Shown here: piece by piece, positions 13,724 to 48,815 of the stretch
Position numbering within the stretch: the stretch's first letter is position 1
Layout of the letters: each line of letters opens with the position of its first letter
From: an uncultured Bacteroidota bacterium
GTDB taxonomy: Bacteria; Bacteroidota; Ignavibacteria; UBA10030; UBA8401
Assembly (NCBI GenBank): GCA_963772165.1
Contig: CAVYWA010000011.1
Coordinates: forward strand, 101,909-165,908
DNA length: 64,000 nt
Direction of reading: 5' to 3'
Notes under the pieces: model-generated
Database searches by the model: none
What the model was told of the DNA's origin: nothing
What the model saw: only the letters and a program-made list of their open reading frames with translations
Position numbers and translations under genes: made by a program

Positions 13724-13735
13724 GATTGTCACTGT

Positions 13736-16169: not shown

Positions 16170-16538
16170 ATGGCTGAAAAGAATGCTGTAAAAGAGTTGA
16201 ACCTTATCGGTTCAGGAACGACCGTCGAAGGAAAAATCCGGACGCAAGGGAATATTCGAATCGACGGGAAGATGATGGGTGAGCTCCACGCTGCGGAAAA
16301 TGTTGCGGTGGGATTGACCGGCGAAATTGAGGGGAACATCAATGGGAAGAACGTTACCGTCGGCGGAAAGATTCGCGGCAATATTATCGCGGTCGATAAG
16401 CTCGTTTTCGAGGGAAAGGCGGTCGTCCGCGGCGATATTCGGTCCGCACGCCTGGTGATTGACGAAGGGGCGGTCTTCGACGGGAAAATTTCGATGACGG
16501 ATGCGCGTTCTGCGAATCATGACGTCCAAAAATATTAA
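16170..16538 (+). CDS. bactofilin (polymer-forming cytoskeletal protein)
   Basis: 122 aa made of repetitive G/V/I beta-helix rungs (VGLTGEIEGNINGKNVTVGGKIRGNII...), typical of the DUF583/bactofilin domain. Confidence 0.8.
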   Translation: MAEKNAVKELNLIGSGTTVEGKIRTQGNIRIDGKMMGELHAAENVAVGLTGEIEGNINGKNVTVGGKIRGNIIAVDKLVFEGKAVVRGDIRSARLVIDEGAVFDGKISMTDARSANHDVQKY

Positions 16539-16550
16539 GCGCGTGAGACA

Positions 16551-16832
16551 ATGGAACAGCAGGATAAAAAGCTGTTCGAAGGCGCTCGCAATGTGTTCCT
16601 GGATTTCGGTCCGTTTCTAACACTGGGCATTCAACTTGCTTTATCCATTGTTGTCTTTTTTTTCCTCGGGAAATGGCTGGACGGCCGGTTCAACACGTCA
16701 CCGTGGTTGATGTTCATCGGATTACTTTTCGGTGCAGTTGGCGGAATGGTGAAATTCATAACTTCTGTCATGAAGTTAGGTCAACAGCAAGACGCATTGG
16801 ATGCAGAACGAAAACAACACAAGAAAGTTTGA
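16551..16832 (+). CDS. atpZ: AtpZ/ATPase_gene1 family small membrane protein
   Basis: 93 aa with two TM helices (FLTLGIQLALSIVVFFFLGKWLD; WLMFIGLLFGAVGG). It lies directly upstream of atpI/atpB. Confidence 0.55.
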   Translation: MEQQDKKLFEGARNVFLDFGPFLTLGIQLALSIVVFFFLGKWLDGRFNTSPWLMFIGLLFGAVGGMVKFITSVMKLGQQQDALDAERKQHKKV

Positions 16833-17211
16833 TGTCTCTTTTCCACGTCAAATCGCCGTTGTTGTTCTCCTGAGTGCTCTTCTCTCTGTGTATCCGCTTT
16901 TTGCTTTTGCTTCGGCAGAAGTTATTCGCGCTTGCGTTGCAGGGGTGACGATAAGCTTGGCGAACGTGCTGGCCGGTTACGCGGCGATTGAATACTCGAT
17001 CGATAAATCGTATACGGTATTCCTGAAAGTGGTGCTCGGCGGAATGGGGTTTCGAATGCTGGTGATGCTTGGAGCCCTGCTGATGTTGATAGAGGTTTTT
17101 CATTTTCACGCCCTGCCTCTGGTCGTTTCGCTGATGGGATTTTATGTTCTGTTTTTGATTCTCGAAGTGATGTTCATGCAAAAGAAATTGGGCAATAAAA
17201 CCGAAGGATAA
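16801..17211 (+). CDS. atpI: ATP synthase protein I-like membrane protein
   Basis: 136-aa four-TM protein between atpZ and atpB. The start is uncertain; it overlaps atpZ by 32 nt. Confidence 0.5.
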   Translation: MQNENNTRKFDVSFPRQIAVVVLLSALLSVYPLFAFASAEVIRACVAGVTISLANVLAGYAAIEYSIDKSYTVFLKVVLGGMGFRMLVMLGALLMLIEVFHFHALPLVVSLMGFYVLFLILEVMFMQKKLGNKTEG

Positions 17212-17215
17212 TTCA

Positions 17216-18148
17216 GTGGCATCGTTTTTTCTTCTAGACACTCAAGCTGCGGCTCATGCAGCCGCCGATTCTGCCGCCGTTATCGCCGACACTGCCCGCG
17301 TTTCCGCTGTGCATGAGGAGAGCGAAAATCTTTTCACGCATCTTCTTAAACACGTTCAGGATGCGCACGAGCTCGAGACCCCGTTCGGACGCATCGAGCT
17401 TCCGCATCTTCACCTTTTCGGGATCGACATGTCGATAACGAAACACGTTGTTTTTTTATGGCTCGCCGCGGTCATGCTCATCGTTATCCTGGCCGTTGTT
17501 GCGCGGAAAAATAAAAAGCATGCCGTTCCGACAGGCTTCGGCAACCTTATCGAAGTTTTCGTCGTTTTTGTCCGCGATGAGATCGCACTCCCTAATATGG
17601 GGCCGGGCGGACTTAAATATCTTCCGTACCTGTTGACAACTTTCTTTTTTATCCTTTTGATGAACTTGCTGGGGCTCGTACCCTACGGCGCTTCGGCCAC
17701 TGGAAACGTCAGCGTGACCGCTGGCCTTGCGGTGATTGCCTATATCATGATCCAGGCGTCTGCGATTCGCACACAGGGTCTCGTCCATTATTTTGAGCAT
17801 TTTACCGGCGGCGTCCATTGGATCTTATGGCCTATCATGGTTCCGATCGAAATTCTCGGAACGTTCACCAAAGCTTTTGCATTGTGTGTTCGTTTGTTCG
17901 CGAATATGACTGCCGGCCACATCGTTATCGTATCACTGCTCGGATTGATCTTTGTGTTTGGGAAATTATCTCCGGCGCTGGGATACACAGTCTCGGTACC
18001 GTCCGTCCTTTTCACACTCGGGATCGATCTTCTTGAGCTTTTTGTTGCGTTCCTCCAGGCATATATTTTTACAATGCTGACGTCGCTCTTTATGGGGCTC
18101 GGGATGCAGGTTGAAAGCCATGACGCCCATGAAGAACATGCGCACTAA
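17216..18148 (+). CDS. atpB: F0F1 ATP synthase subunit a
   Basis: Conserved a-subunit helices, including the Arg-containing LCVRLFANMTAGH motif. The long N-terminal extension is typical of Chlorobi/Bacteroidetes-type a subunits. Confidence 0.9.
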   Translation: MASFFLLDTQAAAHAAADSAAVIADTARVSAVHEESENLFTHLLKHVQDAHELETPFGRIELPHLHLFGIDMSITKHVVFLWLAAVMLIVILAVVARKNKKHAVPTGFGNLIEVFVVFVRDEIALPNMGPGGLKYLPYLLTTFFFILLMNLLGLVPYGASATGNVSVTAGLAVIAYIMIQASAIRTQGLVHYFEHFTGGVHWILWPIMVPIEILGTFTKAFALCVRLFANMTAGHIVIVSLLGLIFVFGKLSPALGYTVSVPSVLFTLGIDLLELFVAFLQAYIFTMLTSLFMGLGMQVESHDAHEEHAH

Positions 18149-18204
18149 AATTCTAGAGATCATCGTTCACTATTTACACCATTTACACTTATAGGAGAAA
18201 TATA

Positions 18205-18462
18205 ATGGAAGCAAATCCAATTGAAGTCGCGAAAGCCGTAGCAACACAGTGGGGATATTTAGCAGCCGGATTCGGCGCCGCCATCACCGTTGTCGGAGCG
18301 GGCCTTGGAATCGGCAAGCTCGCCGCAGCGGCGATGGAAGCCAGCGGCCGTCAGCCGGAAGTTGCCGGCCAGGTCAGAACGTCGATGTTGATTGCAGCAG
18401 CGCTTATTGAAGGAGTCACCTTTTTTGCGCTGGCGATCTGCATTATTCTTGCAACCAAGTAA
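18205..18462 (+). CDS. atpE: F0F1 ATP synthase subunit c
   Basis: 85-aa hairpin proteolipid with G-rich helix 1 (GAGLGIGKLAAAAMEA). SD sequence taggag lies upstream. Confidence 0.9.
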   Translation: MEANPIEVAKAVATQWGYLAAGFGAAITVVGAGLGIGKLAAAAMEASGRQPEVAGQVRTSMLIAAALIEGVTFFALAICIILATK

Positions 18463-18480
18463 AACTCAACAGGGATCGAT

Positions 18481-18966
18481 ATGTTAGACATCAATCCGGG
18501 ACTCATCCTCTGGACGATCATTACCTTTATTCTCCTGCTCTTCATCCTTGGCAAGGTAGCGTGGAAGCCGCTGATGAGCGCTTTACAGGCGCGGGAGCAA
18601 GGCATCCGCGATGCACTCCTCAAGGCTGAAGAAGCGAGAAAGGAATCTGAACGGCTGCTTGCGGAAAACACGATGGCAGTGAAGCGGGCGAACGAAGAAA
18701 CATCGCGCATTCTCAAAGAAGGACGCGACTTAGCCGAACAGATGAAGAATGAAATTGTTGCCAAAGCCCACGAAAGCACAAAAACGATGATGGAAGAGGC
18801 GAAAGAAGATATCCAACGCGAAAAGGAAACAGCACTTCTTCAATTGAAGAACGAAGTTGCCGACCTTGCGGTGAATGCCGCCGAAAAGATCATCGATGAA
18901 ACGCTTGATGAGGCAAAACAAAAAAAACTCGTTGACAAAGTCCTCCAATCGCTCCCGAAGAATTGA
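18481..18966 (+). CDS. atpF: F0F1 ATP synthase subunit b
   Basis: N-terminal TM helix followed by a long charged coiled coil. Position in the operon. Confidence 0.85.
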   Translation: MLDINPGLILWTIITFILLLFILGKVAWKPLMSALQAREQGIRDALLKAEEARKESERLLAENTMAVKRANEETSRILKEGRDLAEQMKNEIVAKAHESTKTMMEEAKEDIQREKETALLQLKNEVADLAVNAAEKIIDETLDEAKQKKLVDKVLQSLPKN

Positions 18967-19520
18967 TGAGTAACCTGAGAGTTGCAAAACGATACGCGTC
19001 CGCTTTGATGGCGTTGACCGGTGAAGCGAAGAAACCCGAGGCAATCGCCGACGACCTGTTGACAGTTCAATCGACGGTCAAGTCGTCCAGAGAGCTCCGT
19101 TCGCTATTGGCAAGCCCCGTTGTTTCAAAGGAAAAGAAAAAGGCCGTGATAGCAGAAATTTTCGGCAAAAAAATCGGCGCGGCGGTGAATCAATATCTTG
19201 CTGCGATCATAGAAAAAAGGCGCGAAGACGTTTTACCCGAAGTGCTCGAACAATATTTTCTCCTTCGGGACGAACAGCTCGGCATCGTTTCGGTTGATGT
19301 CCGTTCGGCAGTAAAGTTTTCTGCAGAGCAGGAAAAATCATTGATACGGCAATTGGAATCGTATACACAAAAGAAAGTCCGTGTCTCGTTCAGCCTCGAC
19401 AAAATTCTCAAGGGAGGCTTCGTTGCAAAAGTTGGGGACACAACACTGGATGGAAGCATCCGTCGCCAGCTTGAGCTTTTACGCTCACGGCTGAAAGACG
19501 GTTCTGTCTCGAAGAATTAA
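18963..19520 (+). CDS. atpH: F0F1 ATP synthase subunit delta
   Basis: Begins [10 protein letters not shown], the OSCP/delta N-terminal signature. Overlaps the atpF stop by 4 nt. Confidence 0.85.
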
Positions 19521-19540
19521 TTTTTTTATCAAACAAGGAT

Positions 19541-21097
19541 ATGACAATGGCGGAAGTACGACCCGATGAGATAACTGCCGTGCTGCGAAAACAGCTCTCC
19601 GGCTTTGAAAAAGAAATCGATATTTATGATGTCGGCACCGTGCTGCAGGTCGGCGACGGCATCGCGCGCTTGTACGGCTTGTCCAAAGTCATGGCGAGCG
19701 AGCTGATTGAGTTTCCAAACGATGTTTTCGGCATGGTGCTGAACCTTGAAGAAGACAACGTCGGTTGTGTCCTCTTCGGCGACGATACGAAAATTAAAGA
19801 AGGCGACACGGTAAAACGAACGAAACGTGTTGCCTCAATGCCGGTCGGCGAGGCCATGCTCGGACGCGTTATCAACCCGCTCGGGCAGCCGCTTGACGGT
19901 CGCGGAACGATCAAGACAGACAAATTTTTACCTCTTGAAAGAAAAGCGCTCGGCGTTATCCAACGCCAGCCGGTGAAGCAGCCGCTCCAGACCGGGTTGA
20001 AAGCTATCGACGGCATGATTCCCATCGGGCGCGGACAGCGAGAGCTGATTATCGGCGACCGCCAAACCGGGAAGACCGCAGTTGCTCTCGACACAATTAT
20101 CAATCAGAAATATACACACTCCGAGAAGGCGAAGAAAGAAGGAGTAAAGCCGGTCTACTGTATCTATGTAGCGATCGGCCAGAAGGGATCGACCGTTGCG
20201 CAGGTGATGACAAAGCTTGAAGAAATGGGAGCGATGGAATATACGGCAATTATTTCCGCGACTGCCAGCGACCCGGCTCCCTTGCAGTTTATTGCTCCGT
20301 ATGCAGGCGCAACGCTCGGCGAATTTTTCCGCGACAGCGCGCGCGATGTACTGGTGGTGTACGATGACTTATCCAAGCATGCGGCGGCGTACCGTGAAGT
20401 ATCGCTGCTGCTGCGGCGCCCGCCCGGACGTGAAGCGTATCCCGGCGACGTGTTCTATCTTCATTCCCGTCTTCTTGAGCGTGCATCAAAGTTGAGCGAC
20501 GAGCTTGGCGGAGGAAGCCTGACGGCGCTTCCAATCATCGAGACGCAGGCGGGTGACGTTGCCGCCTATATTCCGACGAACGTTATCTCGATTACGGACG
20601 GACAGATTTTCCTCGAACCGAATTTGTTTAATTCCGGCGTGCGTCCCGCTATCAACGTCGGCATCTCCGTGTCGCGCGTCGGCGGAAATGCGCAGATCAA
20701 GGCGATGAAAAAAGTTGCCGGGCGCCTTCGCCTGGACCTCGCGCAATACCGTGAGCTGGAAGCGTTCGCGAAATTCGGCTCCGACCTTGATAAGGCGACG
20801 CAGCAGCAGCTGCAGCGCGGTTCGCGGCTTGTCGAAGTGTTGAAACAGAGACAGTACGTGCCGATGCCCGTCGAGAAACAAATCATCATGCTCTATCTCG
20901 GCACATCGGGTTTTCTGGACCAGCTGCCGGTCCACCGGGTGCTGCCGTTCGAGAAAGAGTTTCTTGAAATGGCTGAAACCCGCCACAAGGACCTTCTCGA
21001 CATCATTGCGGAGAAGAAAGAATTGACGGACGATATCACAAAACGCATTCAAACGATTGCGAAAGAATTCATGAATACATTCAGCGTGTCGGCGTAA
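19541..21097 (+). CDS. atpA: F0F1 ATP synthase subunit alpha
   Basis: Walker A GDRQTGKT. 518 aa with the conserved alpha-subunit sequence throughout. Confidence 0.95.
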
Positions 21098-21099
21098 TT

Positions 21100-21996
21100 A
21101 TGGCTACGCTGCGCGACATACGAAGGAGCATTGCAGGCGTCAAGAGCACGCAGAAGATCACCAAGGCGATGAAGATGGTGGCCGCGGCAAAATTGCGCCG
21201 CGCCCAGGAGGCAATTCTTCAGGCGCGGCCGTACGCCCGCAAGATGGCGGAAATGCTGCGCCATCTTTCAGGCAAGGTTGATGCCGCAAAATATCCAGCC
21301 CTGACCCAGCGTCCCGTTGAAAAAGTCGCCATCGTCGTTGTTACCGCCGACCGCGGCTTATGCGGCGCATTTAACACGAACATTTTGCGCGCTGCCGTCA
21401 GCCACATCAACAATAATTATAAGGAGTTGTTCGCGGCGGGAAATGTGAAGCTTTTCTGCATCGGCAGAAAAGGGTTCGACTTTTTCAGCAAACGAAATTA
21501 CGAGATTCTCTCCAAGCAGGTAGGGATTTTCAACTCGCTGAATTTCGGCAATGCCCGGAACATCGTGAAAGAAATTGTGGACGGTTACGCCGCGAAAAAT
21601 TTTGATAAAGTCGTTGTTGTCTACAACGAATTCAAGAACGCCGCCCAGCAGCGGATAGCGATTGAACTCTTTCTGCCTGTTCCCCCCGATCCTGTCGAAA
21701 AAGGCAAAGAGAAGAAACTCCGCTCGCTCGTCGATTACATCTATGAACCGTCGAGCGAAGAGATTATCTCTGCACTCGTTCCGAAACATTTGAATTTTCA
21801 AATGTGGCGCATCCTCCTGGAGTCCAACGCCGCCGAGCAGGGGGCACGCATGACTGCGATGGAGAATGCTTCAACAAACGCGAAAGAAATGATCAGTTCG
21901 CTCGAACTCTCCTACAATAAGGCGCGCCAGGCATCCATCACGAAAGAGCTGCTGGAAATTGTCAGCGGCGCCGAAGCACTGAAAAAAGCAGGCTGA
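21100..21996 (+). CDS. atpG: F0F1 ATP synthase subunit gamma
   Basis: 298 aa. N-terminal MATLRDIRRSIAGVKSTQKITKAMKMVAAAKLRRAQ is the gamma signature. Confidence 0.9.
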   Translation: MATLRDIRRSIAGVKSTQKITKAMKMVAAAKLRRAQEAILQARPYARKMAEMLRHLSGKVDAAKYPALTQRPVEKVAIVVVTADRGLCGAFNTNILRAAVSHINNNYKELFAAGNVKLFCIGRKGFDFFSKRNYEILSKQVGIFNSLNFGNARNIVKEIVDGYAAKNFDKVVVVYNEFKNAAQQRIAIELFLPVPPDPVEKGKEKKLRSLVDYIYEPSSEEIISALVPKHLNFQMWRILLESNAAEQGARMTAMENASTNAKEMISSLELSYNKARQASITKELLEIVSGAEALKKAG

Positions 21997-22098
21997 GGTT
22001 AATTAAGAATTATGAATTAAGAATTGGAGGCGAATTGCCTCATTTTTTTAATCTCTAATTCCTAATTCCTAATTTTTAATTCATAATTCTTCATTGCT
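21997..22098. repeat. AT-rich palindromic element with (TAATTCC)3-like heptad tract; likely atp-operon terminator and/or ffh leader
   Basis: aattaagaattatgaattaagaatt ... aatttttaattcataattctt form a long inverted repeat. The tract ctaattcctaattcctaattttt recurs at 60700-60735 and 61958-61990. Confidence 0.55.
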
Positions 22099-23421
22099 GT
22101 GTTTGATACCCTTACTCAAAAATTAGATTCTGTTCTCAAGCGGCTTCGCGGAGAAGGAAGAATTTCCGAAGCGAACATTGCGGAGATGCTGCGCGAAGTT
22201 CGCAAGGTCTTGCTCGATGCGGACGTCAACTATAAAGTCGTAAAGCAGTTCATCGACAACGTCCAGCAGAAGTCGCTTGGCAAAGAAGTTGTCACGAGCA
22301 TCGCGCCCGGCCAGCTCATCGTGAAAATAATCCACGATGAACTGGTTGTGTTGTTGGGGACCGCGAAAGCCGACATCGTGATCTCGCAGACGCCGCCGTC
22401 GGTTATCCTGATTGCAGGACTGCAGGGATCGGGGAAAACGACTTTCGCTGGAAAGCTGGCAAATTTATTGAAGTCGAAGGGCCGCAGCCCGCTTCTCGTT
22501 GCGGCGGATGTCTACCGTCCTGCGGCGATCGACCAGTTGATCATGCTCGGCGGGCAGATTGAAGTTCCCGTTTTCTCCAGCAGGACGGACACGGCGATCG
22601 ACATTGCGAAGAACAGCATTGAGCACGCGCGAAAGAATGCACGGGACACCGTGATCATCGATACGGCAGGCCGCTTGCATGTGGATGAAGAAATGATGCG
22701 TGAGGTTGAGAGCATCAAGTCATCCGTCCAGCCCCATGAAATATTGTTCGTCGTGGATGCGATGACGGGACAGGATGCGGTCAACACGGCAAAGGCGTTT
22801 CACGACCGCCTCAATTTTGACGGCGTCGTTCTTACAAAACTCGACGGCGATACGCGCGGTGGTGCCGCCCTCTCTATCCGCTCGATCGTCGAGAAACCGA
22901 TCAAGTTTGTCGGAACCGGTGAAAAGCTCGACGCCCTTGAGCAGTTCCATCCCGACCGCATGGCGTCGAGGATTCTCGGCATGGGGGATATCGTTACGCT
23001 TGTTGAGAAAGCCCAGCAGACGTTCGACAAGGACAAGGCACAGCAGCTTGAACAAAAAATACGAAAGTCGCAATTTACGCTCGAAGATTTTTACAGCCAG
23101 CTCCAGGAAATCAAAAAAATGGGTCCGTTGAGCCAGGTGCTGTCGATGATTCCCGGAGCGAACAAGCTCGGCAACGTGAACGATGTTGACGAAAAAGAGA
23201 TGAAATATGTTGAGGCCATGATCCTGTCGATGACGATTGAAGAACGGCAGCACCCCGCGATCATCAACGGATCGCGGCGAAAGCGCATTGCCACAGGGAG
23301 CGGAAGATCCGTGCAGGAAGTGAACAAGCTTCTCAAGCAGTTTTTCGAGATGCAAAAAATGATGAAGAATTTTACAAAAGGAAAGAATGTCGGGCGCATG
23401 ATGGCGCAGCGTTTCCACTGA
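22099..23421 (+). CDS. ffh: signal recognition particle protein Ffh
   Basis: NG domain with GLQGSGKTT. M-domain methionine-rich C-terminus. GTG start. Confidence 0.95.
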   Translation: MFDTLTQKLDSVLKRLRGEGRISEANIAEMLREVRKVLLDADVNYKVVKQFIDNVQQKSLGKEVVTSIAPGQLIVKIIHDELVVLLGTAKADIVISQTPPSVILIAGLQGSGKTTFAGKLANLLKSKGRSPLLVAADVYRPAAIDQLIMLGGQIEVPVFSSRTDTAIDIAKNSIEHARKNARDTVIIDTAGRLHVDEEMMREVESIKSSVQPHEILFVVDAMTGQDAVNTAKAFHDRLNFDGVVLTKLDGDTRGGAALSIRSIVEKPIKFVGTGEKLDALEQFHPDRMASRILGMGDIVTLVEKAQQTFDKDKAQQLEQKIRKSQFTLEDFYSQLQEIKKMGPLSQVLSMIPGANKLGNVNDVDEKEMKYVEAMILSMTIEERQHPAIINGSRRKRIATGSGRSVQEVNKLLKQFFEMQKMMKNFTKGKNVGRMMAQRFH

Positions 23422-31025: not shown

Positions 31026-31802
31026 TTGGAAGGAACATCAGTGAAGAGACTGTTATTCACCTGTTCATTGTTCATTGTTTATTGTTCATTGAGGGCACAA
31101 AATTCGGCAGGCGATGCGGCGAACATTGAACCGCGATATACAATTGATACGCCGACAGCAGGGCTTTTAAAGCGAGGAGCGTTTGCGATGGATGTCGATT
31201 TTTTCCAGAACGGCGGAATGACGGTCGGCCTTGAAGCCGGTGCGCTTGATCGTTTGAATTTTGGTATTTCATACGGCGGTTCGGGAATTATCGGAGACGG
31301 CAACATTTCGATGCAGAAGCTCCCCGGCGTGAACGTCAAATTCCGCTTGTTCGATGAGACGATGGCGATGCCCGCTATCGCACTTGGGTTTGACTCACAG
31401 GGAAAGGAAACGTACATTGACAGTTTAGAACGGTTCACGATTAAGTCCCGAGGATTTTTTGCTTCTGCCAGTAAAAATTATTCTTTTATGGGCAATTTGA
31501 GTCTTCACGGCGGGACGAATTACAGCCTTGAGAACAAAGACGGCAACAACAATTTAGATTTTTTTGTCGGCGCCGAAAAATCGTTGGGCACCGATATTTC
31601 ATTGCTTGCCGAATATGACTTTGGGTTGAATGATAATCTCGGCGTTGTCGGCAAAGGGAATGGATATTTGAACGCGGGTTTACGCTGGTCGTGGGGAAAC
31701 GGGTTCACTCTTGGTTGTGATCTGAAAAATCTTGTCAGAAATCAAAATAATGTCACGATCGGTAATAGAACAATCAAAGTGGAATATGTACGGGCACTCT
31801 AA
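31026..31802 (+). CDS. predicted outer-membrane beta-barrel protein
   Basis: Signal peptide (RLLFTCSLFIVYCSLRAQ). Alternating-hydrophobic strands rich in G/N/S/D turns. C-terminal aromatic-containing strand. Confidence 0.5.
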   Translation: MEGTSVKRLLFTCSLFIVYCSLRAQNSAGDAANIEPRYTIDTPTAGLLKRGAFAMDVDFFQNGGMTVGLEAGALDRLNFGISYGGSGIIGDGNISMQKLPGVNVKFRLFDETMAMPAIALGFDSQGKETYIDSLERFTIKSRGFFASASKNYSFMGNLSLHGGTNYSLENKDGNNNLDFFVGAEKSLGTDISLLAEYDFGLNDNLGVVGKGNGYLNAGLRWSWGNGFTLGCDLKNLVRNQNNVTIGNRTIKVEYVRAL

Positions 31803-31872
31803 CATTGGAATGATCCAGTCCTTTATGGTGTTAGTGTTGGTAATGGTTCTATAAAGGAGGAAGGAATTTCTT

Positions 31873-32808
31873 ATGAAAACTATCCGAAGCTTTTTCAACC
31901 TTGTAATCTTTTTACCGGCCGCCGGATTCTTTTTTGCCGGATGTTATACTCACATGGAGACGATGAGAGATGAGGGATCGGGCGGTGGAGACGGCGATGA
32001 TTACGCGTACACCGATTCAACGAACGCTTCGAACGATACGACTGGTGCCAACTATTTCTCCGACGATGATTACCGTGAAGCGAATGAGCGGGCATCGTTT
32101 GATTACTATTGTCCCCCTGCTTACATCTGGGGATCGAACATTTGCTACGATCCGTGGTATGACGAATGTTGGTATCCTGGTTCGTACTGGTACGGGTATT
32201 ATCCTTATTGGGGCTGGGGATGGGGATACGGTTATTCGCCGTATTATGGCGGCGGGTATCGCGGATACCATGGATGGCGCGGAGGAGATTTCTATGCCGG
32301 TAGAATAAGGACTATAGGCAACACGCGTGGGGGAGTTGGCTACTTTGGCGGTCGAACCATGGGCGGTTCTCCTGGAGCGATTCCGTTCGCGAACGGAGGT
32401 ATAGCTTCACGAACGAGGACTCCGGCTGCACCAGCGGCTGTTGCTGCAACGACGTCCCGTTCGCGTCAGGAAGTTGCCTGGTGGGAACGGGGAAGAGCAA
32501 CAACGGCGGCTTCTTCGGATAGGAATGGAGTGACAGCGCGTACACAGTCTGCGGGAAGGAGCTCAACGGCTGCTTACCAAAGAAGAACTACGGTTAATTC
32601 CTCAAGGAGCAGTGTTAATGCTCGCCAGGTAAATCAGCATAGGGGGCGAATGCAACCCGCACGAGGAGGGAGTAGCGGCAGTCAGTCAAGAGTATCGCGT
32701 CAAGGATATCCCCATTATTCTTCTCCACAGGGTTCGAGTGGAAGAGGAGGTAGTAGTGGTGGAGGTCGGAGCGGAGGAGGAAGAAGTGGAGGCGGCAGAG
32801 GCAGGTAA
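31873..32808 (+). CDS. lipoprotein with W/Y/G-rich low-complexity core and C-terminal RGG/SGGGR repeats
   Basis: Lipobox FFAGCY. Acidic D/G stretch. WYPGSYWYGYYPYWGWGWGYGYSPYYGGGYRGYHGWRGG. S/T/R-rich region. GRGGSSGGGRSGGGRSGGGRGR tail. Confidence 0.6.
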   Translation: MKTIRSFFNLVIFLPAAGFFFAGCYTHMETMRDEGSGGGDGDDYAYTDSTNASNDTTGANYFSDDDYREANERASFDYYCPPAYIWGSNICYDPWYDECWYPGSYWYGYYPYWGWGWGYGYSPYYGGGYRGYHGWRGGDFYAGRIRTIGNTRGGVGYFGGRTMGGSPGAIPFANGGIASRTRTPAAPAAVAATTSRSRQEVAWWERGRATTAASSDRNGVTARTQSAGRSSTAAYQRRTTVNSSRSSVNARQVNQHRGRMQPARGGSSGSQSRVSRQGYPHYSSPQGSSGRGGSSGGGRSGGGRSGGGRGR

Positions 32809-33028
32809 TATGAAATGCAAAACACCGGAACAGTGACCGATCACGGCATAAACATCGAAAACAGTTAATAACAACTACTGCACCGCCCCTTCCGGCTGCT
32901 CCAGAAAGCGGCACGACAACTGATCGCAGCAGGACAAACGGGCAATACTTCAGTTGGGCCGGTACCAGCTACGCGAATGGCCAAGTCAGATTGCGGAGAC
33001 GGAAGGGAGTAGGAGGCGAAGGATATCT

Positions 33029-34483
33029 ATGAAACTACATGGTTCTCTACACTCAATTATTTTCATTCTTGGATTAGCAACGTTTGGTATATCCGCTGCT
33101 CATGCACAGTTTGCGGATGACGCGCTGCGTTTTTCTTCTACAGGATTCGGAGTTGGTTCGCGAGCTCAAAGCATGGGCGGCGCCTATATCGGCGTGGCGG
33201 ATGATTACAGTGCTACGTTTTGGAATCCGGCCGGTTTGGCACAGATGAGGAGACTCGAATTTACCGGCGGCATTATCAATACGAATTATTCAAACGACGC
33301 GACGTTTTTTGGCAACTCGAGCACTGCAACGAACAGCAGCACTGCGCTGGATAATCTGGGCTTCGTGTTTCCGGTCCCGACATCGCGCGGAAGCTTAGTC
33401 TTCGCCGCCGGCTACAATAGGGTGAACGATTATACAACCGCACTCGCATTCAACGGCTTCAATGCGAAAAGCTCGATCATACCGTCGCTCTACGACCCCG
33501 ACGGTGATTTTGACATCCCGTTCCAAACTTTTTTGGAAAATACAAACGGTTATACTCCGATTCAAAAAAATGTACAGCAGCAAGGAGTTGTCCGCGAGAG
33601 CGGAAGTATTGGTACGTGGGCGTTCTCCGGTGCGGTCGATATAGAAAAAGATTTTTCGTTTGGTGTAACAATCAATCTCATCAACGGCACATACAATTAT
33701 GTAAGGAATTACTCCGAAACAGATGTTAATAACGTCTATAACGACCCGACGAGATTTTATGATGCGAACGGGGTTATTCCGGACTCCTTATACAGAGAGT
33801 TTAACGCATTCTATTATGACAACTCACTCACCAGCGAATTGAGCGGGGTGAATGTGATGTTCGGGTTTATGTACAGGTACGAGGATATTGCTCGCTTTGG
33901 TCTCACGATCAAAACTCCGACGTCGATGACCATCCATGAAACATATACGAATGCCGGGCAAAGTGCGTTCGATGATACAACGGGTTATTATTATTCGTAC
34001 GATGCAAATAATGATTATGGATTAACGACTCCGTGGGTGTTCGGTGCCGGCGCTTCGTATTCTCCGTTCGAAGGACTTTTGTTGTCCGGGCAAATTGAAT
34101 ACACCGATTGGACGCAACTGCAGTGGACCGACAATAGCGACCTCGAAAACGAAAATATTGCCTTGAAACAGGAATTTCGCTCCACGGTAAATTATGCCGT
34201 CGGTGGGGAATTTGAGATTCCGCGCACCGAGATTCGCTTGAGGGCGGGCTATTCATTCAAACCATCGGCGTATGTGGGCGATCCATCATCCTTCGGCCAA
34301 ACCACAATTACAGGAGGAGCCGGTATTTTGCTGCAAGATAATGTTATGGTTGACGTCGCAGCAATGTTCGGGTCGTTTAAAACGTACCAAAATAACTACG
34401 GCGATGCGGCGCTTAATCTATCGCGCACAGATGAAAGCATTTCCACCACGAACATTGACCTCACCATCTCTTACAGGTTTTAG
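33029..34483 (+). CDS. FadL/OmpP1/TodX-family outer-membrane channel (PorV-like?)
   Basis: Signal peptide MKLHGSLHSIIFILGLATFGISAAHA. N-terminal motif GSRAQSMGGAYIGVADDYSATFWNPAGLA characteristic of the FadL family. C-terminal ...TISYRF. The ORF-track start at 32954 is probably an over-extension. Confidence 0.7.
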   Translation: MKLHGSLHSIIFILGLATFGISAAHAQFADDALRFSSTGFGVGSRAQSMGGAYIGVADDYSATFWNPAGLAQMRRLEFTGGIINTNYSNDATFFGNSSTATNSSTALDNLGFVFPVPTSRGSLVFAAGYNRVNDYTTALAFNGFNAKSSIIPSLYDPDGDFDIPFQTFLENTNGYTPIQKNVQQQGVVRESGSIGTWAFSGAVDIEKDFSFGVTINLINGTYNYVRNYSETDVNNVYNDPTRFYDANGVIPDSLYREFNAFYYDNSLTSELSGVNVMFGFMYRYEDIARFGLTIKTPTSMTIHETYTNAGQSAFDDTTGYYYSYDANNDYGLTTPWVFGAGASYSPFEGLLLSGQIEYTDWTQLQWTDNSDLENENIALKQEFRSTVNYAVGGEFEIPRTEIRLRAGYSFKPSAYVGDPSSFGQTTITGGAGILLQDNVMVDVAAMFGSFKTYQNNYGDAALNLSRTDESISTTNIDLTISYRF

Positions 34484-34554
34484 CTCGTCGTTCCTGGTTA
34501 CGGGTAAACCCAGCTAGGCGTTTTAAGGGAATAGCCCTCCACAAATACACTGAG

Positions 34555-34590
34555 AAAGGCGTAAACTTGGTTTGTTTACGCCTTTTTCTT
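34555..34590 (+). terminator. rho-independent terminator after the FadL-like gene
   Basis: ggcgtaaac - ttggttt - gtttacgcc 9-bp stem followed by TTTTT. Confidence 0.65.
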
Positions 34591-34824
34591 AGTTCTCTAC
34601 TCCATAATTGCCATCCCATGCCATCTTTGCTCATCTAAAGGTCCTCATTGCCAGGACTAAGGGGGCCAGCGAATCAGCGTTACTTTTTCCACTTTTTTGG
34701 AAACTCGTGACACTATTTTTGGGAAAAGATTGAGTGCTGAATAGTTAAACGTTGATTTTTCAGCCAATTACATTGTTTATGGCTGCCACATTGCCGCTAA
34801 TCTCCCTTTTGGTAATGGCACAAA

Positions 34825-34850
34825 TATTGTAACTCTGAAAGATTACAATA
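34825..34850. promoter_or_regulatory. perfect palindrome TATTGTAA-N10-TTACAATA, candidate operator about 85 bp upstream of the multihaem cytochrome gene
   Basis: 8-bp inverted repeat with a 10-bp spacer in a 340-bp AT-rich leader. Confidence 0.4.
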
Positions 34851-34932
34851 TCCTTCTTAAAACACAAAAAGGCAGGGTTTGCGGCTTTAGAGTGAGAGAG
34901 GATTTTTAAAACATTGAAACCTGGAGAATACA

Positions 34933-37044
34933 ATGAAAAGATTTGCTAACATTTCTAGGGCACTCCTTATCTGTTGCTTCCTCGCATTTGTGTCGATGGA
35001 AACAATGGCGCAGGTAGTGAAGCTAAGGGTAGCACCGATGTCGCCCGGAAAACTAGGCGCAATTGGCAAGAGCAGCGCTTTGGCAACAACGGGGTTGAAA
35101 ATATTCGGCAAAGGAGCAAAGACTTTCCTGCTTGCGGACACGACAGGTTCCGGAGCAACAGTCGTGACCTCGTTCACATGGTCGTTTGTTTCCAGGCCGA
35201 CTGCCTCTACGGCAGTATTTGACAGCACAGGCAGCAATCAGTCTCAAAGCTTCACGGCAGATTCTGGTGGACAATACATAGTAAGTGTTTCAATAAACGG
35301 TGGCGCGTCCGACCAAGACACGTTCTGGGTTAGTACATACATTGGCAATCCTACAACGGCGGTATCAGGTGCAATTCCGTGCGCGACATGCCATTCGGCA
35401 AACAATACCGGTTGGCAAACCACGGGTCATGCGCTTATTTACACGCAAGGGATTATGGGACAACTGGAAGTAAATACATACGGCCAGGGAGAATATTCTA
35501 CGAGTTGCTGGCAATGCCACACCACAGGATATAACACTTCAGCAAACAACGGAAATTTTGGGTATCTCTCTCATTCACTCGGTTGGGATACTACGGCATT
35601 CAAAGGATTGCCGAAAGCTGGATCCTTCTCTTTAATCCCCAACGGCGATTCGGCGATCTATAAAAACATGGTCACGAATTATTCTCCTCTTGTTCCATTA
35701 GCAAGCATAGGATGCGAGAGCTGCCATGGACCAGGAAAAGATCACAACGGCGATATTAGTAAAATCGGCCTTTCGCTCGATGCCGGTGTTTGCCAATCAT
35801 GCCACGACGCGCCCCCGAGACATGTCTCTGGAACTTATTGGGCTTTGTCAGATCATGCCACGATGCCTCTTGCAGGAACGGATGCGACCTCGACGAGCTG
35901 CTTCCCCTGCCACAGCGGCAGCGCATTTGTGAAATGGGTGACTGACAGCAAGCCTGCTACCGATGCAAATTGGAGTGCCGCCGCCGATGCAAGCTATCCT
36001 ATTACCTGCGCGGTTTGTCATGACCCGCACAGCACGACAAATCCAAATCAGTTGAGGACCGTGACCGTCGATACGCTGAGAAACGGATATCGTATCCAGT
36101 CGGGCGGACTCGGTCAGCTTTGCATGAACTGCCATCGCTCACGGTACGCCGTCAGCACAAAAGTTACGACAACTCCTCCGTACTACGGATTCGGAAGCCA
36201 CTACGGCCCGCACGGCAACCCGCAAGCCGATATGCTTTTGGGTCAGAATGCGTACCAGTACGGGGACAGCAGCCTTACCGGCCTAGCAACGCATGACGGC
36301 GTTCCCGACGCCTGCGTTACGTGCCACATGCCCGGAAACAACCACGCTTTGACAATGCAAGACACAACTGGAACTGGTGTCATGCACGACCGAGTCGATG
36401 CTTGCCAAACCTGCCATGGACCCCAGATCCAAAAATTTGACGACATCAAAGCCAGCTATGACTATGATCGCAACGGAAAGATCGAGGGAGTTCAAACAGA
36501 AGTCGCTGGGTTATTGGCTCAGTTGAAAGCAAGGCTGCCGCTCGACTCCACTGGAAATCCGATAACTGGTCTGGGAGATAGCCTTAAAGTTAAGAACAGG
36601 CCGGATCTGGTACAAAATTTGTATACGTATGCTTTTGTGACGAGTGATGGAAGCGGTGGTATGCATAACGCGAAATACACTGTGGCTCTTTTGCAGAAAG
36701 CCCTTGGATTCTACCCGACGGGTGTCAATGTTGTGAGTCAGAAAACCCCGTCGACGTATAACCTAAGCCAGAATTATCCGAACCCGTTCAACCCGTCGAC
36801 GAATATCGAATTCTCAATTCCCCGCTCGGCGACGATTCAGTTGAATGTCTACAATATTCTCGGCGAGTTGGTGAAGACACTTGTTAACGGAGATATTGTA
36901 TCGGGTAACTATAAAGTAACCTGGAATGGAACAAACAGCCACGGAGTAACGGTATCCAGCGGGATCTATTTCTACAGACTGGTTGCTCAGTCTAACGGAG
37001 CCGCGAATTATATCATCACAAAGAAAATGTTGATGATGAAGTAA
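34933..37044 (+). CDS. nonahaem c-type cytochrome with T9SS C-terminal sorting domain (secreted/surface multihaem cytochrome)
   Basis: Signal peptide. Nine CxxCH motifs (CATCH, CWQCH, CESCH, CQSCH, CFPCH, CAVCH, CMNCH, CVTCH, CQTCH). C-terminus LSQNYPNPFNPSTNIEFSIP...VYNILGELV...SGIYFYRLVA...KKMLMMK matches Por_Secre_tail. Confidence 0.85.
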   Translation: MKRFANISRALLICCFLAFVSMETMAQVVKLRVAPMSPGKLGAIGKSSALATTGLKIFGKGAKTFLLADTTGSGATVVTSFTWSFVSRPTASTAVFDSTGSNQSQSFTADSGGQYIVSVSINGGASDQDTFWVSTYIGNPTTAVSGAIPCATCHSANNTGWQTTGHALIYTQGIMGQLEVNTYGQGEYSTSCWQCHTTGYNTSANNGNFGYLSHSLGWDTTAFKGLPKAGSFSLIPNGDSAIYKNMVTNYSPLVPLASIGCESCHGPGKDHNGDISKIGLSLDAGVCQSCHDAPPRHVSGTYWALSDHATMPLAGTDATSTSCFPCHSGSAFVKWVTDSKPATDANWSAAADASYPITCAVCHDPHSTTNPNQLRTVTVDTLRNGYRIQSGGLGQLCMNCHRSRYAVSTKVTTTPPYYGFGSHYGPHGNPQADMLLGQNAYQYGDSSLTGLATHDGVPDACVTCHMPGNNHALTMQDTTGTGVMHDRVDACQTCHGPQIQKFDDIKASYDYDRNGKIEGVQTEVAGLLAQLKARLPLDSTGNPITGLGDSLKVKNRPDLVQNLYTYAFVTSDGSGGMHNAKYTVALLQKALGFYPTGVNVVSQKTPSTYNLSQNYPNPFNPSTNIEFSIPRSATIQLNVYNILGELVKTLVNGDIVSGNYKVTWNGTNSHGVTVSSGIYFYRLVAQSNGAANYIITKKMLMMK

Positions 37045-37071
37045 TATCGGCTTTTCGTAAATTAAATAAAA

Positions 37072-37106
37072 AAGGCTGCTGTGGATTACCACTGCAGCCT
37101 TTTTTA
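37072..37106 (+). terminator. rho-independent terminator after the cytochrome gene
   Basis: aaggctgctgtgg - atta - ccactgcagcctt followed by TTTTTT. Confidence 0.65.
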
Positions 37107-37180
37107 TTGATTGTCGCCCTTCAAATAGCTATATTTCCCTATCTCTCACTGTTTCAAATACTTACGCAAAAAGCTGAGCG

Positions 37181-45565: not shown

Positions 45566-45657
45566 GAATTTTCTTTCGGCGTGCTTCGTTGTAATAAGTG
45601 ATACAGAGCGTTTATTGTAAGAGCAAAATAGCTTTCCCCATACTCATTGAGGATTCC

Positions 45658-48600
45658 ATGAGAATGCGCCTTTTGATGATCGGGTTTTTATTGACTGCCG
45701 GAGTGTTCTCCTCGGTAGCCCAGGAGGCTGTTTTCGGCAAGAACAAAGTGAAGTACAAAAAATTTGAGTGGTGGTACATTCAAACAAACCATTTCGACAT
45801 TTATTTCAGCGACAACGGAGAATACCTTGCGAACTTTACCGCAGCCGCCGCTGAATCCGCCTACACCCTTATCAGCAAAAGTTTCCGCTACGAGATCAAT
45901 AATCGTATTCCGATTATGGTCTACAACTCGCACAACGATTTTCAGCAGACGAATGTTTTATCGGAATACATGGAAGAAGGAATCGGCGGTGTCACGGAAC
46001 TCTTCAAGAACAGAATGGTGGTCCCGTTCGAGGGTAATTACAAGATGTTCCGTCATGTCATTCACCATGAACTCGTCCACGCCGTTTTCAACGATATGTT
46101 CTACGGCGGTTCGATACAATCCATCATCTCCAATAACATCCGCCTCCAGCTGCCGATGTGGTTCAACGAAGGGATGGCGGAGTATCAATCGCTGCATTGG
46201 GATACAAACTCGGACATGTTCATGCGTGATGCGACGATTCATACCTATCTTCCCCCCATCGACTATCTCAGCGGTTACTTTGCCTATCGCGGGGGCCAAT
46301 CGGTTTGGTATTATATTGCAAATAAGTACGGCGATCAGAAAATTTCAGAAATTTTGAATCGGATCAAGGGGTCGCGCAGCATAGAGCAGGGATTTAAAAA
46401 TGCCCTCGGATTGAGCATCTCTGAATTAAACGAGCGATGGCAGAAAGAGCAGAAAGTGCTGTACTGGCCCGACATTGCGAAGCGTGAAGACCCGGCGGAT
46501 TTTGCGACGCGCCTCACGAACCACGTGAAAGAATCTGATTTTTATAATACCAGCCCATCGATTTCCCCTCAGGGCGACAAAGTCGCATTTATTTCCGACC
46601 GCGATGATTATTTCGACGTGTATATCATGTCCACGATCGACAATAAAATAACGAAGATCGTCGACGGACAGCGGACCAAAAATTTTGAAGAACTGCACCT
46701 GCTGACGCCGGGCATTACCTGGTCTCCCGACGGAAAGAAGATCGCCCTGGCCGTGAAGAGCGGGGAGAGCGATGCAATATTTATTGTTGATGCCGTCACC
46801 GGTGACCAGGAGAAAATTCAATTTCAACTGGAAGGGATCTTTTCCGTCGACTGGTCGCCCAAAGGGGACAAGCTCGCGTTTGTCGGAGACGACGCGAAAC
46901 AGTCGGATATTTATCTCTATGACTTGAAAACGAAAAACCTGACGAATCTCACCGACGATATTTTTTCAGATTCCGACCCGCACTGGGCACCCGATGGAAA
47001 GACGATCTACTTTGTTTCGGACAGGAAAGACAATCTCGACCGTAATGCCGTCTCCCCGAATTTCAAAATGGCAAAGTATGATTTTTCCGAATCGGATATT
47101 TATTCGTTGAACGTTGAGACTTTGGAGATGAAGCGTATCGTTGATTATGACGGCAGCGATGCAACATCGCCGGTGCATATCGCCGGACGGGAAAAAAATG
47201 CTCTACGTCTCCGACCGGAACGGCATCGGGAATATTTATGAGCGCAATCTTGTTACCGGCGCGGACCGCCCCATTACCAATTCGCATTACCGGAGTGTTC
47301 CAGCTCTCATTGTCGGCGGATGGAAACAAACTTTCGTTTGCGGCGCTGAATGAAGCGGGCTTCGACATCTATCTTATGAAAGCGCCCTTCGACAAAAAAT
47401 TAGCGGTGTCCGAACTTGAGCCGACGGAATACTTAAAACGCAGAATGCGATTGGCGCAGAAAACGACCACGGCGCCCGGCGTCCAGGGAACAAAGGACTC
47501 GTCGAGTGTGGCGGCTAACGTTCCCGCAAAAGACACGGCGGGTGTCTACGGCGATCGTGTGCACATCGATTTTCAAAACTATGTTTTCTCTGATGAACAG
47601 CCCAAAGAGAAACCGCCGTCCCCCGAGGCGGAAACCGTGGGAAAACAAATAGAACCGAGCGACAATGTCGACGAACAGGGCAACTATAAAGTCAACAAGT
47701 ACAAGCTCAATTTTTCGCCCGATATCATTTACGGCAACGCCGGCTACAGTACCTTCTACGGAGTGGAAGGAACGACAGAAATGGCGTTCAGCGACATGCT
47801 CGGAAACCATCAAATCTATTTTCTCACGAACTTGATGCTGGATTTGGAGAACAGCGACTATGTCATGGCGTACAATTATTTGGCGACGAAAATTGACTAT
47901 GGGATTGAAGGATTTCACAGCGCGCGGTTTTTGTACCTGTACGACCAGACGGGCAATGTTTCGTTGTATCGTTTTCAAACATGGGGCATCGGATTGTCGG
48001 CGTCGTATCCGCTGGATAGATTCAATCGGTTCGATTTCAGTCTGGCCTGGCTGAACCTTTCCAGGCAAAATCTCGACGACCCGACATTGGATGAACCTAC
48101 GGACGAACGAAACCTCGTGATGCCTTCGATAAGTTATATCCACGACACATCGCTGTGGGGTATCACTGCCCCGAACAACGGGACGCGCTATAATTTTACC
48201 GTTATGTTCAGCCCTGCGCTTACCGCAGGCGACCATTCCCTTGATTTTCAGACCTATACGCTCGATTATCGAACGTATGAAAAATTCTGGAGGGACTATT
48301 CGTTCGTCATTCGCTGGGCGGGGGGCGTGAGTGAGGGCAGAAATGCACAAAGATTTTTTATCGGCGGGACGGACGGATGGATTAACCGTGAATTTGCCAA
48401 CGGTGGAATCCCGATTAACAATGTTGAGGACTACGCCTTCTTATCGCCTGCGCTTCCGATGCGCGGCTTTGACTACAACGACAAGAACGGCACAAAGTAC
48501 GCATTGATGAACTACGAACTGCGTTTTCCGCTCATCCGCTATCTTGTGACCGGCGGCTTGCCCATTGCGGCCCAAAATATTACGGGCGCGATGTTTGTCG

Positions 48601-48815
48601 ATATCGGTTCGTCGTGGACGGAGGACAAAGCGTATAGGTTCTTTACAAAGGACGATGATGGTAACTATACGGCAGAAGATTTGCTCATGGGGACGGGGTT
48701 TGGCGTGCGGATAATTTTGTTCGGGTTACCGCTAAAATTTGATGTGGCATGGGCATATAATGGGGAAGCTTTTTCTATCCCCGTATACTATATTTCGCTT
48801 GGGGGGGATTTCTAG
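45658..48815 (+). CDS. large outer-membrane protein: signal peptide + HExxH domain + PD40/TolB-like beta-propeller repeats + C-terminal Omp85/BamA-like beta-barrel; interrupted by two +1 frameshifts (about 47175 and 47285)
   Basis: HHELVH motif. Repeated SPDG/APDG/SPKGD-K--A(F)-SDR propeller units. The C-terminus carries MRGF...ELRFPL...GAMFVDIGSSW...GFGVRIILFGLPLKFDVAWAY... and ends with F. The three ORF pieces (45598-47241, 47141-47353, 47238-48815) are contiguous in sequence. Confidence 0.65.

Follow-up and report, generated by a model that had tools for sequence, protein, structure and literature searches.

The window analysed here comprises 64,000 nucleotides (64 kb) of contig CAVYWA010000011.1 (assembly GCA_963772165.1, positions 101,909 to 165,908 of the forward strand) from an uncultured, Ignavibacteria-like Bacteroidota bacterium. 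It contains a gene for a c-type cytochrome with nine haem-binding CxxCH motifs, a signal peptide and a C-terminal domain resembling type IX secretion system (T9SS) sorting domains (CTDs). Around it, in order, are recN, cysS, the genes of two exported hypothetical proteins and of a FadL/TodX-like barrel, the cytochrome gene itself, two halves of hldE, and the genes of a TamB-like giant protein and RNase R. Judged by the predicted products, the surroundings are housekeeping and envelope biogenesis, with hldE belonging to heptose synthesis for lipopolysaccharide. A protein of 100% identity (P0001) is present in public data from metagenome-assembled genomes (MAGs). The features of the locus are listed in Table 1.

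Table 1. Features of the cytochrome locus (window coordinates; Ig, immunoglobulin; UAS, upstream activating sequence; AF2, AlphaFold2)
Feature	Position	Strand	Remarks
Intrinsic terminator of the upstream gene	34552..34588	+	15-bp stem, then T-run
Inverted repeat TTTCCA-N6-TGGAAA	34686..34703	+	candidate UAS for a sigma-54 enhancer-binding protein
Sigma-54-type -24/-12 promoter, TGGCAC-N5-TTGT, TGGCACAAATATTGT	34816..34830	+	invariant alignment block
Inverted repeat first described as a palindrome	34824..34851		9-nt arms, 10-nt spacer; overlaps the -12 element
Shine-Dalgarno-like GGAG	34923..34926	+	6 nt 5' of ATG; read from the sequence
Cytochrome coding sequence	34933..37044	+	703 aa plus stop codon; ATG start
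Sec signal peptide, aa 1-26	34933..35010	+	sequence reading; predicted cut between TMA and Q, exposing Gln27
N-terminal Ig/PKD-like beta-sandwich domain, aa 27 to ~140	35011..35352	+
Nine-haem core	35380..36417	+	nine CxxCH
CxxCH codons 1-5	35380-35394, 35506-35520, 35713-35727, 35791-35805, 35899-35913	+
CxxCH codons 6-9	36007-36021, 36121-36135, 36313-36327, 36403-36417	+
C-terminal helical region, NrfA/OcwA type, aa ~500-592	36430..36708	+	AF2, Pfam, OcwA alignment
EF-hand-like loop DYDRNGKIEGVQTE, aa 510-523	36460-36501	+	at the start of the helical region
T9SS type-A C-terminal sorting domain, aa 606-703 (QNYPNPFNP...GIYFYRL...TKKMLMMK)	36748..37041	+
Intrinsic terminator of the cytochrome gene	37065..37108	+	20-nt inverted repeat between A- and T-runs

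The CxxCH motifs are located at residues 150, 192, 261, 287, 323, 359, 397, 461 and 491. The initial annotation of the locus had also counted nine, and this number is confirmed. In an alignment of 106 homologues (46–88% identity), each CxxCH position is retained in at least 105 of the 106 sequences, with the exception of Cys150 (101 of 106). The nine motifs are not due to chance. They span residues 150–495 (~345 residues) and not about 600 residues, as had been stated. Eighteen of the twenty cysteines lie within CxxCH motifs and the other two, Cys14 and Cys15, belong to the signal peptide. Accordingly, every cysteine of the mature protein is part of a CxxCH motif. Motifs of the types CxxCK and CX3-4CH are absent from the 703 residues.

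The signal peptide, which had also been reported, is borne out by its layout (MKR, a hydrophobic stretch and the sequence TMA-Q), as judged from sequence and conservation. At least 90% of the relatives keep Ala26 and Gln27, and residues 2–25 form a helix in the AF2 model. A newly exposed Gln27 would agree with the rule of an N-terminal Gln, which also holds for Ignavibacterium album (PMC5837995). At the Shine-Dalgarno site, TGGAGA is retained in the five relatives in which the 3' ends of the upstream region were aligned.

A search of the PDB with the single sequence gave OmhA (6QVM, E 5.6e-6), cytochrome c554 and OcwA (6I5B) as best matches. With a profile of the 106 homologues, OcwA ranked first (E 5.9e-20), followed by OmhA (4e-13) and NrfA (5e-9). 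The profile alignment to OcwA is collinear over residues 143–594, starting at haem 1 and running through the whole helical region, and matches up haems 1–6, 8 and 9. Haem 7 is aligned with the CMECH motif of OmhA in the single-sequence search. OcwA is the nine-haem surface Fe(III)-oxide terminal reductase of Thermincola potens (PMC6703420). OcwA and OmhA form one clade (clade 3) of NrfA/HAO-homologous cytochromes together with MccA and c554 (PMC9250108).

The AF2 model calculated from the homologue alignment is a confident one, with a predicted local distance difference test score (pLDDT) of 90.1 and a predicted template-modelling (TM) score of 0.82. It consists of an N-terminal beta-sandwich (residues 29–134), a haem region with little regular secondary structure, helices between residues 520 and 591 (520–533, 547–553, 557–571 and 577–591) and a C-terminal beta-sandwich (residues 598–701). 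The helical region is aligned to residues 378–496 of OcwA and contains the invariant pair His578-Asn579. The overall fold of the model resembles the solved structures of OcwA and OmhA, and both are better matches than NrfA by fold and by profile. By these comparisons, the nine-haem core is homologous to, and collinear with, OcwA and OmhA. Since the identity to OcwA is only ~28%, the protein represents a distinct subfamily and not an OcwA orthologue. The earlier view that it is not a housekeeping cytochrome holds. Its nearest solved relatives, OcwA and OmhA, are the two surface electron-transfer cytochromes known from Gram-positive iron reducers.

In OcwA, haems 1, 3, 4, 6, 7 and 8 have bis-His coordination and haem 9 has His-Met coordination, while haems 2 and 5 are five-coordinate beneath the His-His motifs 281/282 and 380/381 (PMC6703420). 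Exactly nine histidines outside the CxxCH motifs are conserved in the family. His166, His271, His308, His427, His454, His471 and His578 are present in all 106 sequences, His297 in 96% and His366 in 95%. In five of the 106 sequences His366 is replaced by Met. Such a substitution is typical of axial ligands. His297 aligns with His282 of OcwA and His427 with the pair His380/His381. The positions of the second His of each pocket are occupied by Arg296 and Gly428, and a His is found at these positions in 47 and 13 of the 106 sequences, respectively. By alignment, the nine conserved histidines would fit seven distal ligands and two pocket histidines, as in OcwA. The distal sites of haems 2 and 5 are probably open and located beneath His297 and His427.

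The EF-hand-like loop follows haem 9 and precedes the first long helix. Among the 106 homologues Asp510, Asp512 and Glu523 are invariant and Gly515 and Glu518 nearly so. This loop may be a Ca2+ site.

The C-terminal module had been assigned to the T9SS, with searches by hidden Markov models (HMMs) proposed as a check. It passes the cut-off of the NCBIfam model for T9SS type A (TIGR04183, 27.9 bits, cut-off 23, residues 615–687); the Pfam model for the same tail stays below its gathering score. The support from HMMs is thus real but modest. It is strengthened by the predicted fold, a seven-strand Ig-like beta-sandwich that matches the solved CTDs of PorU, PorZ, mirolase and RemA. For the CTD of RemA, taken from the structure of the substrate-bound translocon, the TM score to the modelled tail is 0.66. 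The protein ends with TKKMLMMK, in which Lys698 is invariant and Lys697 and Lys703 are conserved in at least 90% of the homologues. A conserved Lys in the C-terminal motif has been described for T9SS CTDs, and the T9SS "may be present" in Ignavibacteriota and other phyla of the Fibrobacteres–Chlorobi–Bacteroidetes (FCB) group (PMC11285876).

As a control, one genome per species was scanned with the family alignment, and the matches were driven by the tail pattern QN[YF]PNPFN. This gave 593 confirmed matches, of which 80 loci were kept. These are overwhelmingly from MAGs of the FCB group and include Ignavibacteria, Melioribacteraceae, Calditrichia, Zixibacteria, Cloacimonadota and Neomarinimicrobiota as well as Gemmatimonadota, Latescibacterota, Chitinophagales, Cytophagia, Rhodothermaceae, Balneolales and Chlorobiaceae. 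The cargo open reading frame (ORF) is free of CxxCH motifs at 78 of the 80 loci, and only the other two are members of the cytochrome family. Thus, the tail behaves as a portable sorting module with the phyletic range attributed to the T9SS and not as a part of the cytochrome. The host does not belong to the classical Bacteroidia or Flavobacteriia, and to our knowledge the T9SS is unstudied in uncultured Ignavibacteria-like Bacteroidota.

A further copy of the domain is found in the same window. The ORF at 9471–9905 (minus strand, 144 residues) has a lipoprotein-type signal (LLLSSC), which is followed solely by a CTD-like beta-sandwich (ELKQNYPNPF...GVYYIEL...LLRIAALKQ), so that the protein is in effect a cargo-free tail. 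It matches the CTD profile of the family with E 6e-16 and no NCBIfam model at E 1e-4.

To determine the breadth of the family, residues 27–600 (without signal peptide and tail) were searched against 1.84 billion cluster representatives. At E≤1e-30 the family comprises 284 clusters (50% identity), and at E≤1e-10 the number rises to 915. Most of the best 150 representatives have nine CxxCH motifs, some have eight, and 76 carry the CTD at the C-terminus. Also among these 150 are proteins with other C-terminal modules, for example of the type "...FYRVIEVQP" (the sole named member is from Verrucomicrobiae), and proteins with lipoprotein-type N-termini and no tail (the sole named member is from Fidelibacterota). 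The C-terminal end of P0289 is hydrophobic and rich in Arg. In other representatives the module is duplicated in tandem, with 15–24 CxxCH motifs in 1026–1946 residues; P0144, P0155, P0158, P0162 and P0183 are of this kind (16–24 motifs in 1061–1946 residues). A constant haem core with exchangeable envelope-targeting ends is the expectation for a protein with its place of work outside the cell. Close relatives that bear a name come from MAGs labelled Bacteroidota, Ignavibacteria or Ignavibacteriales, which makes an uncultured Ignavibacteria-like host within Bacteroidota in the broad sense probable. Five relatives (P0002, P0011, P0066, P0083 and P0094) carry the name ammonia-forming nitrite reductase c552 in their sources (JGI and NCBI pipelines). 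In a subgroup (P0026, P0032 and P0036), haem 1 has a CX5CH motif (CGFVSACH) in place of CxxCH.

The gene had been described as insulated by its own terminators, and hairpins are indeed present on both flanks. The 5' hairpin, conserved in all six aligned syntenic upstream regions (the window and five relatives), terminates the FadL/TodX-like outer-membrane gene. By its position, it is the predicted 5' boundary of the transcription unit of the cytochrome. Between this hairpin and the ATG lie 344 bp, most of which would be promoter and enhancer DNA, so that the 340-bp leader of the initial annotation is wrong in detail. Besides the upstream terminator, the six aligned regions share two conserved blocks, the -24/-12 promoter and the inverted repeat TTTCCA-N6-TGGAAA.

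The TGGCAC-N5-TTGY pattern of the -24/-12 promoter has a single match on both strands of the 64 kb (0.19 expected). It is located 77–118 nt 5' of the ATG in all six syntenic loci (~117 nt in the window), and the five relatives have the exact consensus TTGC at -12. Transcription is predicted to start near 34841, which would result in a 5' untranslated region of ~90 nt and not 340 nt. No such element was found upstream of six more distant homologues. Sigma-54-type control would therefore be specific to this lineage. The inverted repeat TTTCCA-N6-TGGAAA also has only one match in the window (0.33 expected). Its core TTCC-N8-GGAA is present in all six syntenic loci. Five of these have it 127–129 bp 5' of the -24 element, and in L086 the distance is 106 bp. 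Such spacing is usual for the site of an enhancer-binding protein, and the repeat is a candidate for such a site. Neither rpoN nor an activator gene is present among the window ORFs examined. At locus L091, a response-regulator/Sigma54_activat gene (291–1653, called as two adjacent ORFs) is located ~7 kb upstream of the homologue P0120. No recognisable -24/-12 element is present within 500 bp 5' of the start of P0120.

The "perfect palindrome" reported for the leader is in fact an interrupted inverted repeat, with its arms ATATTGTAA and TTACAATAT at 34824–34832 and 34843–34851. It is partly conserved in L085 and not conserved in L081, L086, L087 and L088. A function as an operator is rejected on this ground, and the repeat is probably incidental or strain-specific. 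Rfam gave no match in the window or the upstream region, which leaves a riboswitch or leader RNA unsupported. A scan for sigma-70-type promoters yielded just weak matches (9 of 12 positions) beside the ATG, which are no better than those in shuffled sequence.

The gene order around the cytochrome is retained in five relatives, down to 64% identity. At 55% identity or less it is lost, and the homologue is found alone amid unrelated genes (L082, L084, L090 and L091). The cytochrome gene usually stands alone. No other stop-to-stop ORF of at least 80 residues in the window has more than one CxxCH motif. The annotated window ORFs include neither a porin-cytochrome pair nor a quinol dehydrogenase, and no trans-outer-membrane electron conduit adjoins the cytochrome gene in the window. 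At 61989–62462, the minus strand encodes a small monohaem protein with a membrane anchor, which belongs to the Haem_bd family (PF14376, E 7.6e-44).

Directly upstream of the cytochrome gene, a block of three genes (31026–34483, plus strand) encodes two exported hypothetical proteins, one of them a lipoprotein with a Gly/Arg-rich tail, and a FadL/TodX-like barrel of 485 residues. Synteny of the block with the cytochrome persists to 64% identity, yet the block has its own terminator. The N-terminus of the barrel protein matches the PorV/PorQ family weakly (36.8 bits, cut-off 90) and its body is BamG-like (73.8 bits, cut-off 250). No sequence match was found in the PDB. The idea that this protein is a dedicated PorV was dropped because the PorV match is weak, BamG matches better and the gene is terminated separately; it is not taken as evidence for a T9SS.

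Further downstream, two overlapping ORFs (45598–47241 and 47238–48815, plus strand) encode Peptidase_MA_2 with a PD40/TolB-like propeller and then a weakly matching BamA/TamA-like barrel. In the relative L081, a single gene call of 1051 residues (Pfam Peptidase_MA_2, PD40 and Tricorn) is found where these two ORFs begin. A frameshift, a genuine split or differing loci may explain the pair.

Two distant loci show other surroundings. In L001, a CTD-tailed homologue of 923 residues (34% identity), whose tail scores higher than that of the window protein (TIGR04183 42 bits; Pfam 30.1 with a gathering score of 27), belongs to a cluster at 3135–14217. The cluster also encodes a protein with 12 haems, a lipoprotein with 14, a six-haem protein of the NapC/NirT/NrfH type that is anchored in the membrane, and a spermidine-synthase-like membrane protein. 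Additionally, it contains a signal-peptide protein of 395 residues without a Pfam match that ends with ...ITFRW and is a candidate barrel by sequence alone. As a whole, this cluster would form a complete electron path from the inner membrane to the surface; being a single locus, it backs the interpretation given below only by association. Close to it, a protein of 2080 residues (16324–22566, minus strand) has the same CTD motif at its end. In L089, two divergent CTD-tailed nonahaem paralogues are arranged in tandem (4458–7565 and 8001–10103). The upstream paralogue (1035 residues, nine CxxCH motifs and a CTD) is 26% identical to the window protein (E 1e-44). Immediately upstream of the pair are two genes, one for DHODB_Fe-S_bind and one for a Fer4_20/Pyr_redox_2 oxidoreductase.

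The preferred interpretation, with a probability of about 0.5, is that of a nonahaem c-type cytochrome of the OcwA/OmhA type in a form adapted to an FCB-group diderm. It would be exported by the T9SS, induced via sigma-54 and act as a terminal reductase on the outer surface. The single gene would be transcribed from the sigma-54-dependent promoter, switched on by an enhancer-binding protein at the upstream inverted repeat, and transcription would end at the gene's own hairpin. The Sec system would carry the precursor over the inner membrane, with cleavage predicted after Ala26. Attachment of haem to CxxCH motifs in the periplasm is established biochemistry; the nine haems would be attached there, and the protein would fold into the N-terminal Ig-like domain, the OcwA-like haem chain and the helical C-terminal region. 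Judging from the domain family of the tail and its phyletic range, the folded holo-protein would then pass the outer membrane, lose the tail and be anchored at the surface. The homology to OcwA and OmhA and the context of the L001 cluster suggest that it would serve there as a terminal reductase of extracellular electron transfer (EET). The kinship fits the outer-surface electron-transfer role that had been proposed for this gene. Likely acceptors would be insoluble or bulky, for example Fe(III) or Mn(IV) oxides, humics or shuttles. Respiratory electrons would be supplied through an outer-membrane conduit, with its genes in another part of the genome.

Several observations weigh against this interpretation. 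The AF2 model contains no haems, and every structural statement rests on this haem-free model. Each OcwA-type His-His pocket retains a single His (Arg296-His297 and His427-Gly428). OcwA reduces Fe(III) oxides and shuttles and, slowly in vitro, nitrite and hydroxylamine; it both reduces and oxidises hydroxylamine, and its kcat for nitrite is 1 per minute (PMC6703420). Because of these nitrite and hydroxylamine activities, homology does not fix the substrate. For the tail, Pfam Por_Secre_tail (PF18962) scores 23.9, under its gathering score of 27, whereas FlgD_ig (PF13860) scores 37.2, over its gathering score of 27. Furthermore, the existence of a lipoprotein made of this beta-sandwich alone means that the fold is not solely a sorting tag. 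T9SS core families are unmatched among the 20 ORFs of the 64-kb window that were scanned against NCBIfam. Neither in the window nor at nine other loci does the neighbourhood of the gene include a porin, a periplasmic multihaem protein or a quinol dehydrogenase. Finally, the -12 element of the window is TTGT (dinucleotide GT) and not the consensus TTGC (GC).

A somewhat unlikely alternative is a surface or secreted reductase of small molecules, in which the two probably open haems reduce or detoxify nitrite, hydroxylamine, nitric oxide or sulfur oxyanions outside the cell and the remaining haems supply the electrons. Control by sigma-54 is classically linked to nitrogen status and would agree with such an enzyme, as would the conservation of His297 and His427 (96–100%) and the NrfH-like neighbour of the L001 homologue. 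The protein belongs to a superfamily homologous to NrfA, ONR, HAO and MccA (PMC9250108), and the activities of OcwA towards nitrite and hydroxylamine in vitro (PMC6703420) point the same way. The nitrite turnover of OcwA is, however, very slow (PMC6703420), and the CxxCK motif is absent. Furthermore, there is no obvious reason to export an enzyme for freely diffusing anions to the surface, and the tandem versions of the module with 18–24 haems resemble electron wires more than enzymes. Improbable as it appears, a periplasmic OcwA-like electron-transfer protein would explain the Pfam scores of the tail, which would then be an Ig domain (FlgD_ig-like) with a role in structure or adhesion rather than a functional T9SS signal. 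The domain-only protein in the same window, the T9SS core families unmatched among the window ORFs scanned and the lack of an outer-membrane conduit gene alongside would suit it as well. It is difficult to reconcile with the TIGR04183 score above the curated cut-off, with the fold matches to four solved T9SS CTDs and with the strictly C-terminal position of the domain and its conserved, Lys-rich last strand. In addition, the same tail is found on 78 CxxCH-free cargo ORFs, overwhelmingly from the FCB group, which is the phyletic range of the T9SS, and related haem cores carry other C-terminal ends or lipoprotein-type signals.

Electron flow in the opposite direction is improbable too. A surface cytochrome fed by Fe(II) minerals, cathodes or partner cells would have an identical architecture. 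Multihaem chains are reversible, and Ignavibacteria are frequently reported from cathodes and syntrophic consortia. Against this reading, the sequence does not indicate the direction, the characterised relatives OcwA and OmhA are from Fe(III) reducers, and the L001 cluster has, by family match, a protein of the NapC/NrfH type, a class best known as quinol dehydrogenases. The identity given by the annotation pipelines for five relatives, ammonia-forming nitrite reductase NrfA (cytochrome c552), is hardly credible and is effectively refuted. Pfam Cytochrom_C552 (PF02335) matches residues 459–592 with 44.9 bits, but this covers only positions 245–371 of the 438 profile positions, which correspond to the last haems and the helices. 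Nine haems are present rather than five, the catalytic CxxCK motif and a full-length model match are missing, and the NrfA equivalog model is not among the NCBIfam matches. OcwA and OmhA are far better matches by profile and fold, and neither nrfH nor nrfBCD is adjacent. An identity as a decahaem cytochrome of the MtrC/OmcA type was rejected on account of the nine haems, the signal-peptidase-I-type site and the neighbours (cysS, FadL-like, hldE and TamB-like genes rather than mtrA/mtrB). Pfam MtrC-MtrF_II-IV matches weakly (37.1 bits, cut-off 30) over four short stretches bearing haem motifs, and no MtrC structure is among the fold matches listed. A role in haem or iron acquisition was rejected because c-type haems are covalently bound.

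If the preferred reading of a T9SS-displayed terminal reductase is extended beyond this locus, the T9SS may export multihaem cytochromes in fully folded form, with their haems in place, and tether them to the cell surface. This would be a third, so far undescribed route to the EET interface, and the proposal is a tentative one. The other routes are the MtrC/OmcA lipoproteins of Proteobacteria, which are secreted by the type II system, and the wall- or S-layer-bound OcwA and OmhA of Firmicutes. The third route would be widespread in Ignavibacteria-like Bacteroidota, since CTD-tailed forms account for about half of the best 150 representatives of the 284-cluster family; in the present lineage it would be switched by sigma-54.

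In literature searches, no paper was found that combines the T9SS with multihaem cytochromes. Recent surveys of multihaem evolution and domain fusion (including PMC9250108), in their available parts, mention no homologues from Bacteroidetes or Ignavibacteria and no fusion with a CTD. Extracellular cytochromes are not treated in the paper on Melioribacter respiration (PMC5492636). The haem core and the sorting tail are each known; their combination and the host group are undescribed. The combination suggests a means, so far undescribed, by which Ignavibacteria-like Bacteroidota could bring an electron-transfer protein to their outer surface. Hundreds of such proteins are already in databases under generic or wrong names. 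Correction of the recurring misannotation as ammonia-forming nitrite reductase c552 is relevant to metagenomic inventories of the nitrogen cycle.

Sediments, aquifers, soils and bioelectrochemical reactors commonly harbour Ignavibacteria and related FCB bacteria, of which cultured members reduce Fe(III). We know of no molecular route described for electron transfer past the outer membrane in these bacteria. A T9SS-displayed OcwA homologue is a concrete candidate for such transfer that can be knocked out. The characterised cargos of the T9SS are proteases, glycosidases, adhesins and motility proteins. If the proposal is true, the range of cargos would grow from hydrolases and adhesins to a redox protein with nine covalent cofactors. 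The homologue also ties a large family of diderm proteins to the surface cytochromes known from metal-reducing Gram-positive bacteria, and this bears on the re-targeting of multihaem modules between envelope types.

Among the known systems, OcwA (TherJR_2595 of Thermincola potens JR, PDB 6I5B) agrees with the window protein in the number (nine) and order of its CxxCH haems, in having a globular haem domain with NrfA-like helices C-terminal to it, and in the conserved histidines over haems 2 and 5. It is a surface protein of a reducer of Fe(III) and electrodes, located on the cell wall of a monoderm, unlike the diderm host here. OcwA has neither the N-terminal Ig domain nor the T9SS tail, both of which are present in the window protein. 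Its two pockets are His-His, whereas those of the window protein are Arg-His and His-Gly. The EF-hand-like loop, invariant in the present family, is lacking in OcwA at the aligned position. OmhA (Carboxydothermus ferrireducens, PDB 6QVM) has eleven haems, two of them additional at the N-terminus, and no T9SS tail. NrfA is a pentahaem periplasmic protein with a CxxCK active site and the partners NrfH or NrfB, and shares none of these features with the cytochrome described here. MtrC, OmcA and MtrF of Shewanella likewise combine Ig-like beta domains with haem domains and have the role proposed here, that of a terminal reductase on the outer surface of a diderm. The T9SS type-A cargos RgpB, mirolase and RemA have in common with the cytochrome a Sec signal peptide and a seven-strand Ig-like CTD whose last strand carries a conserved Lys.

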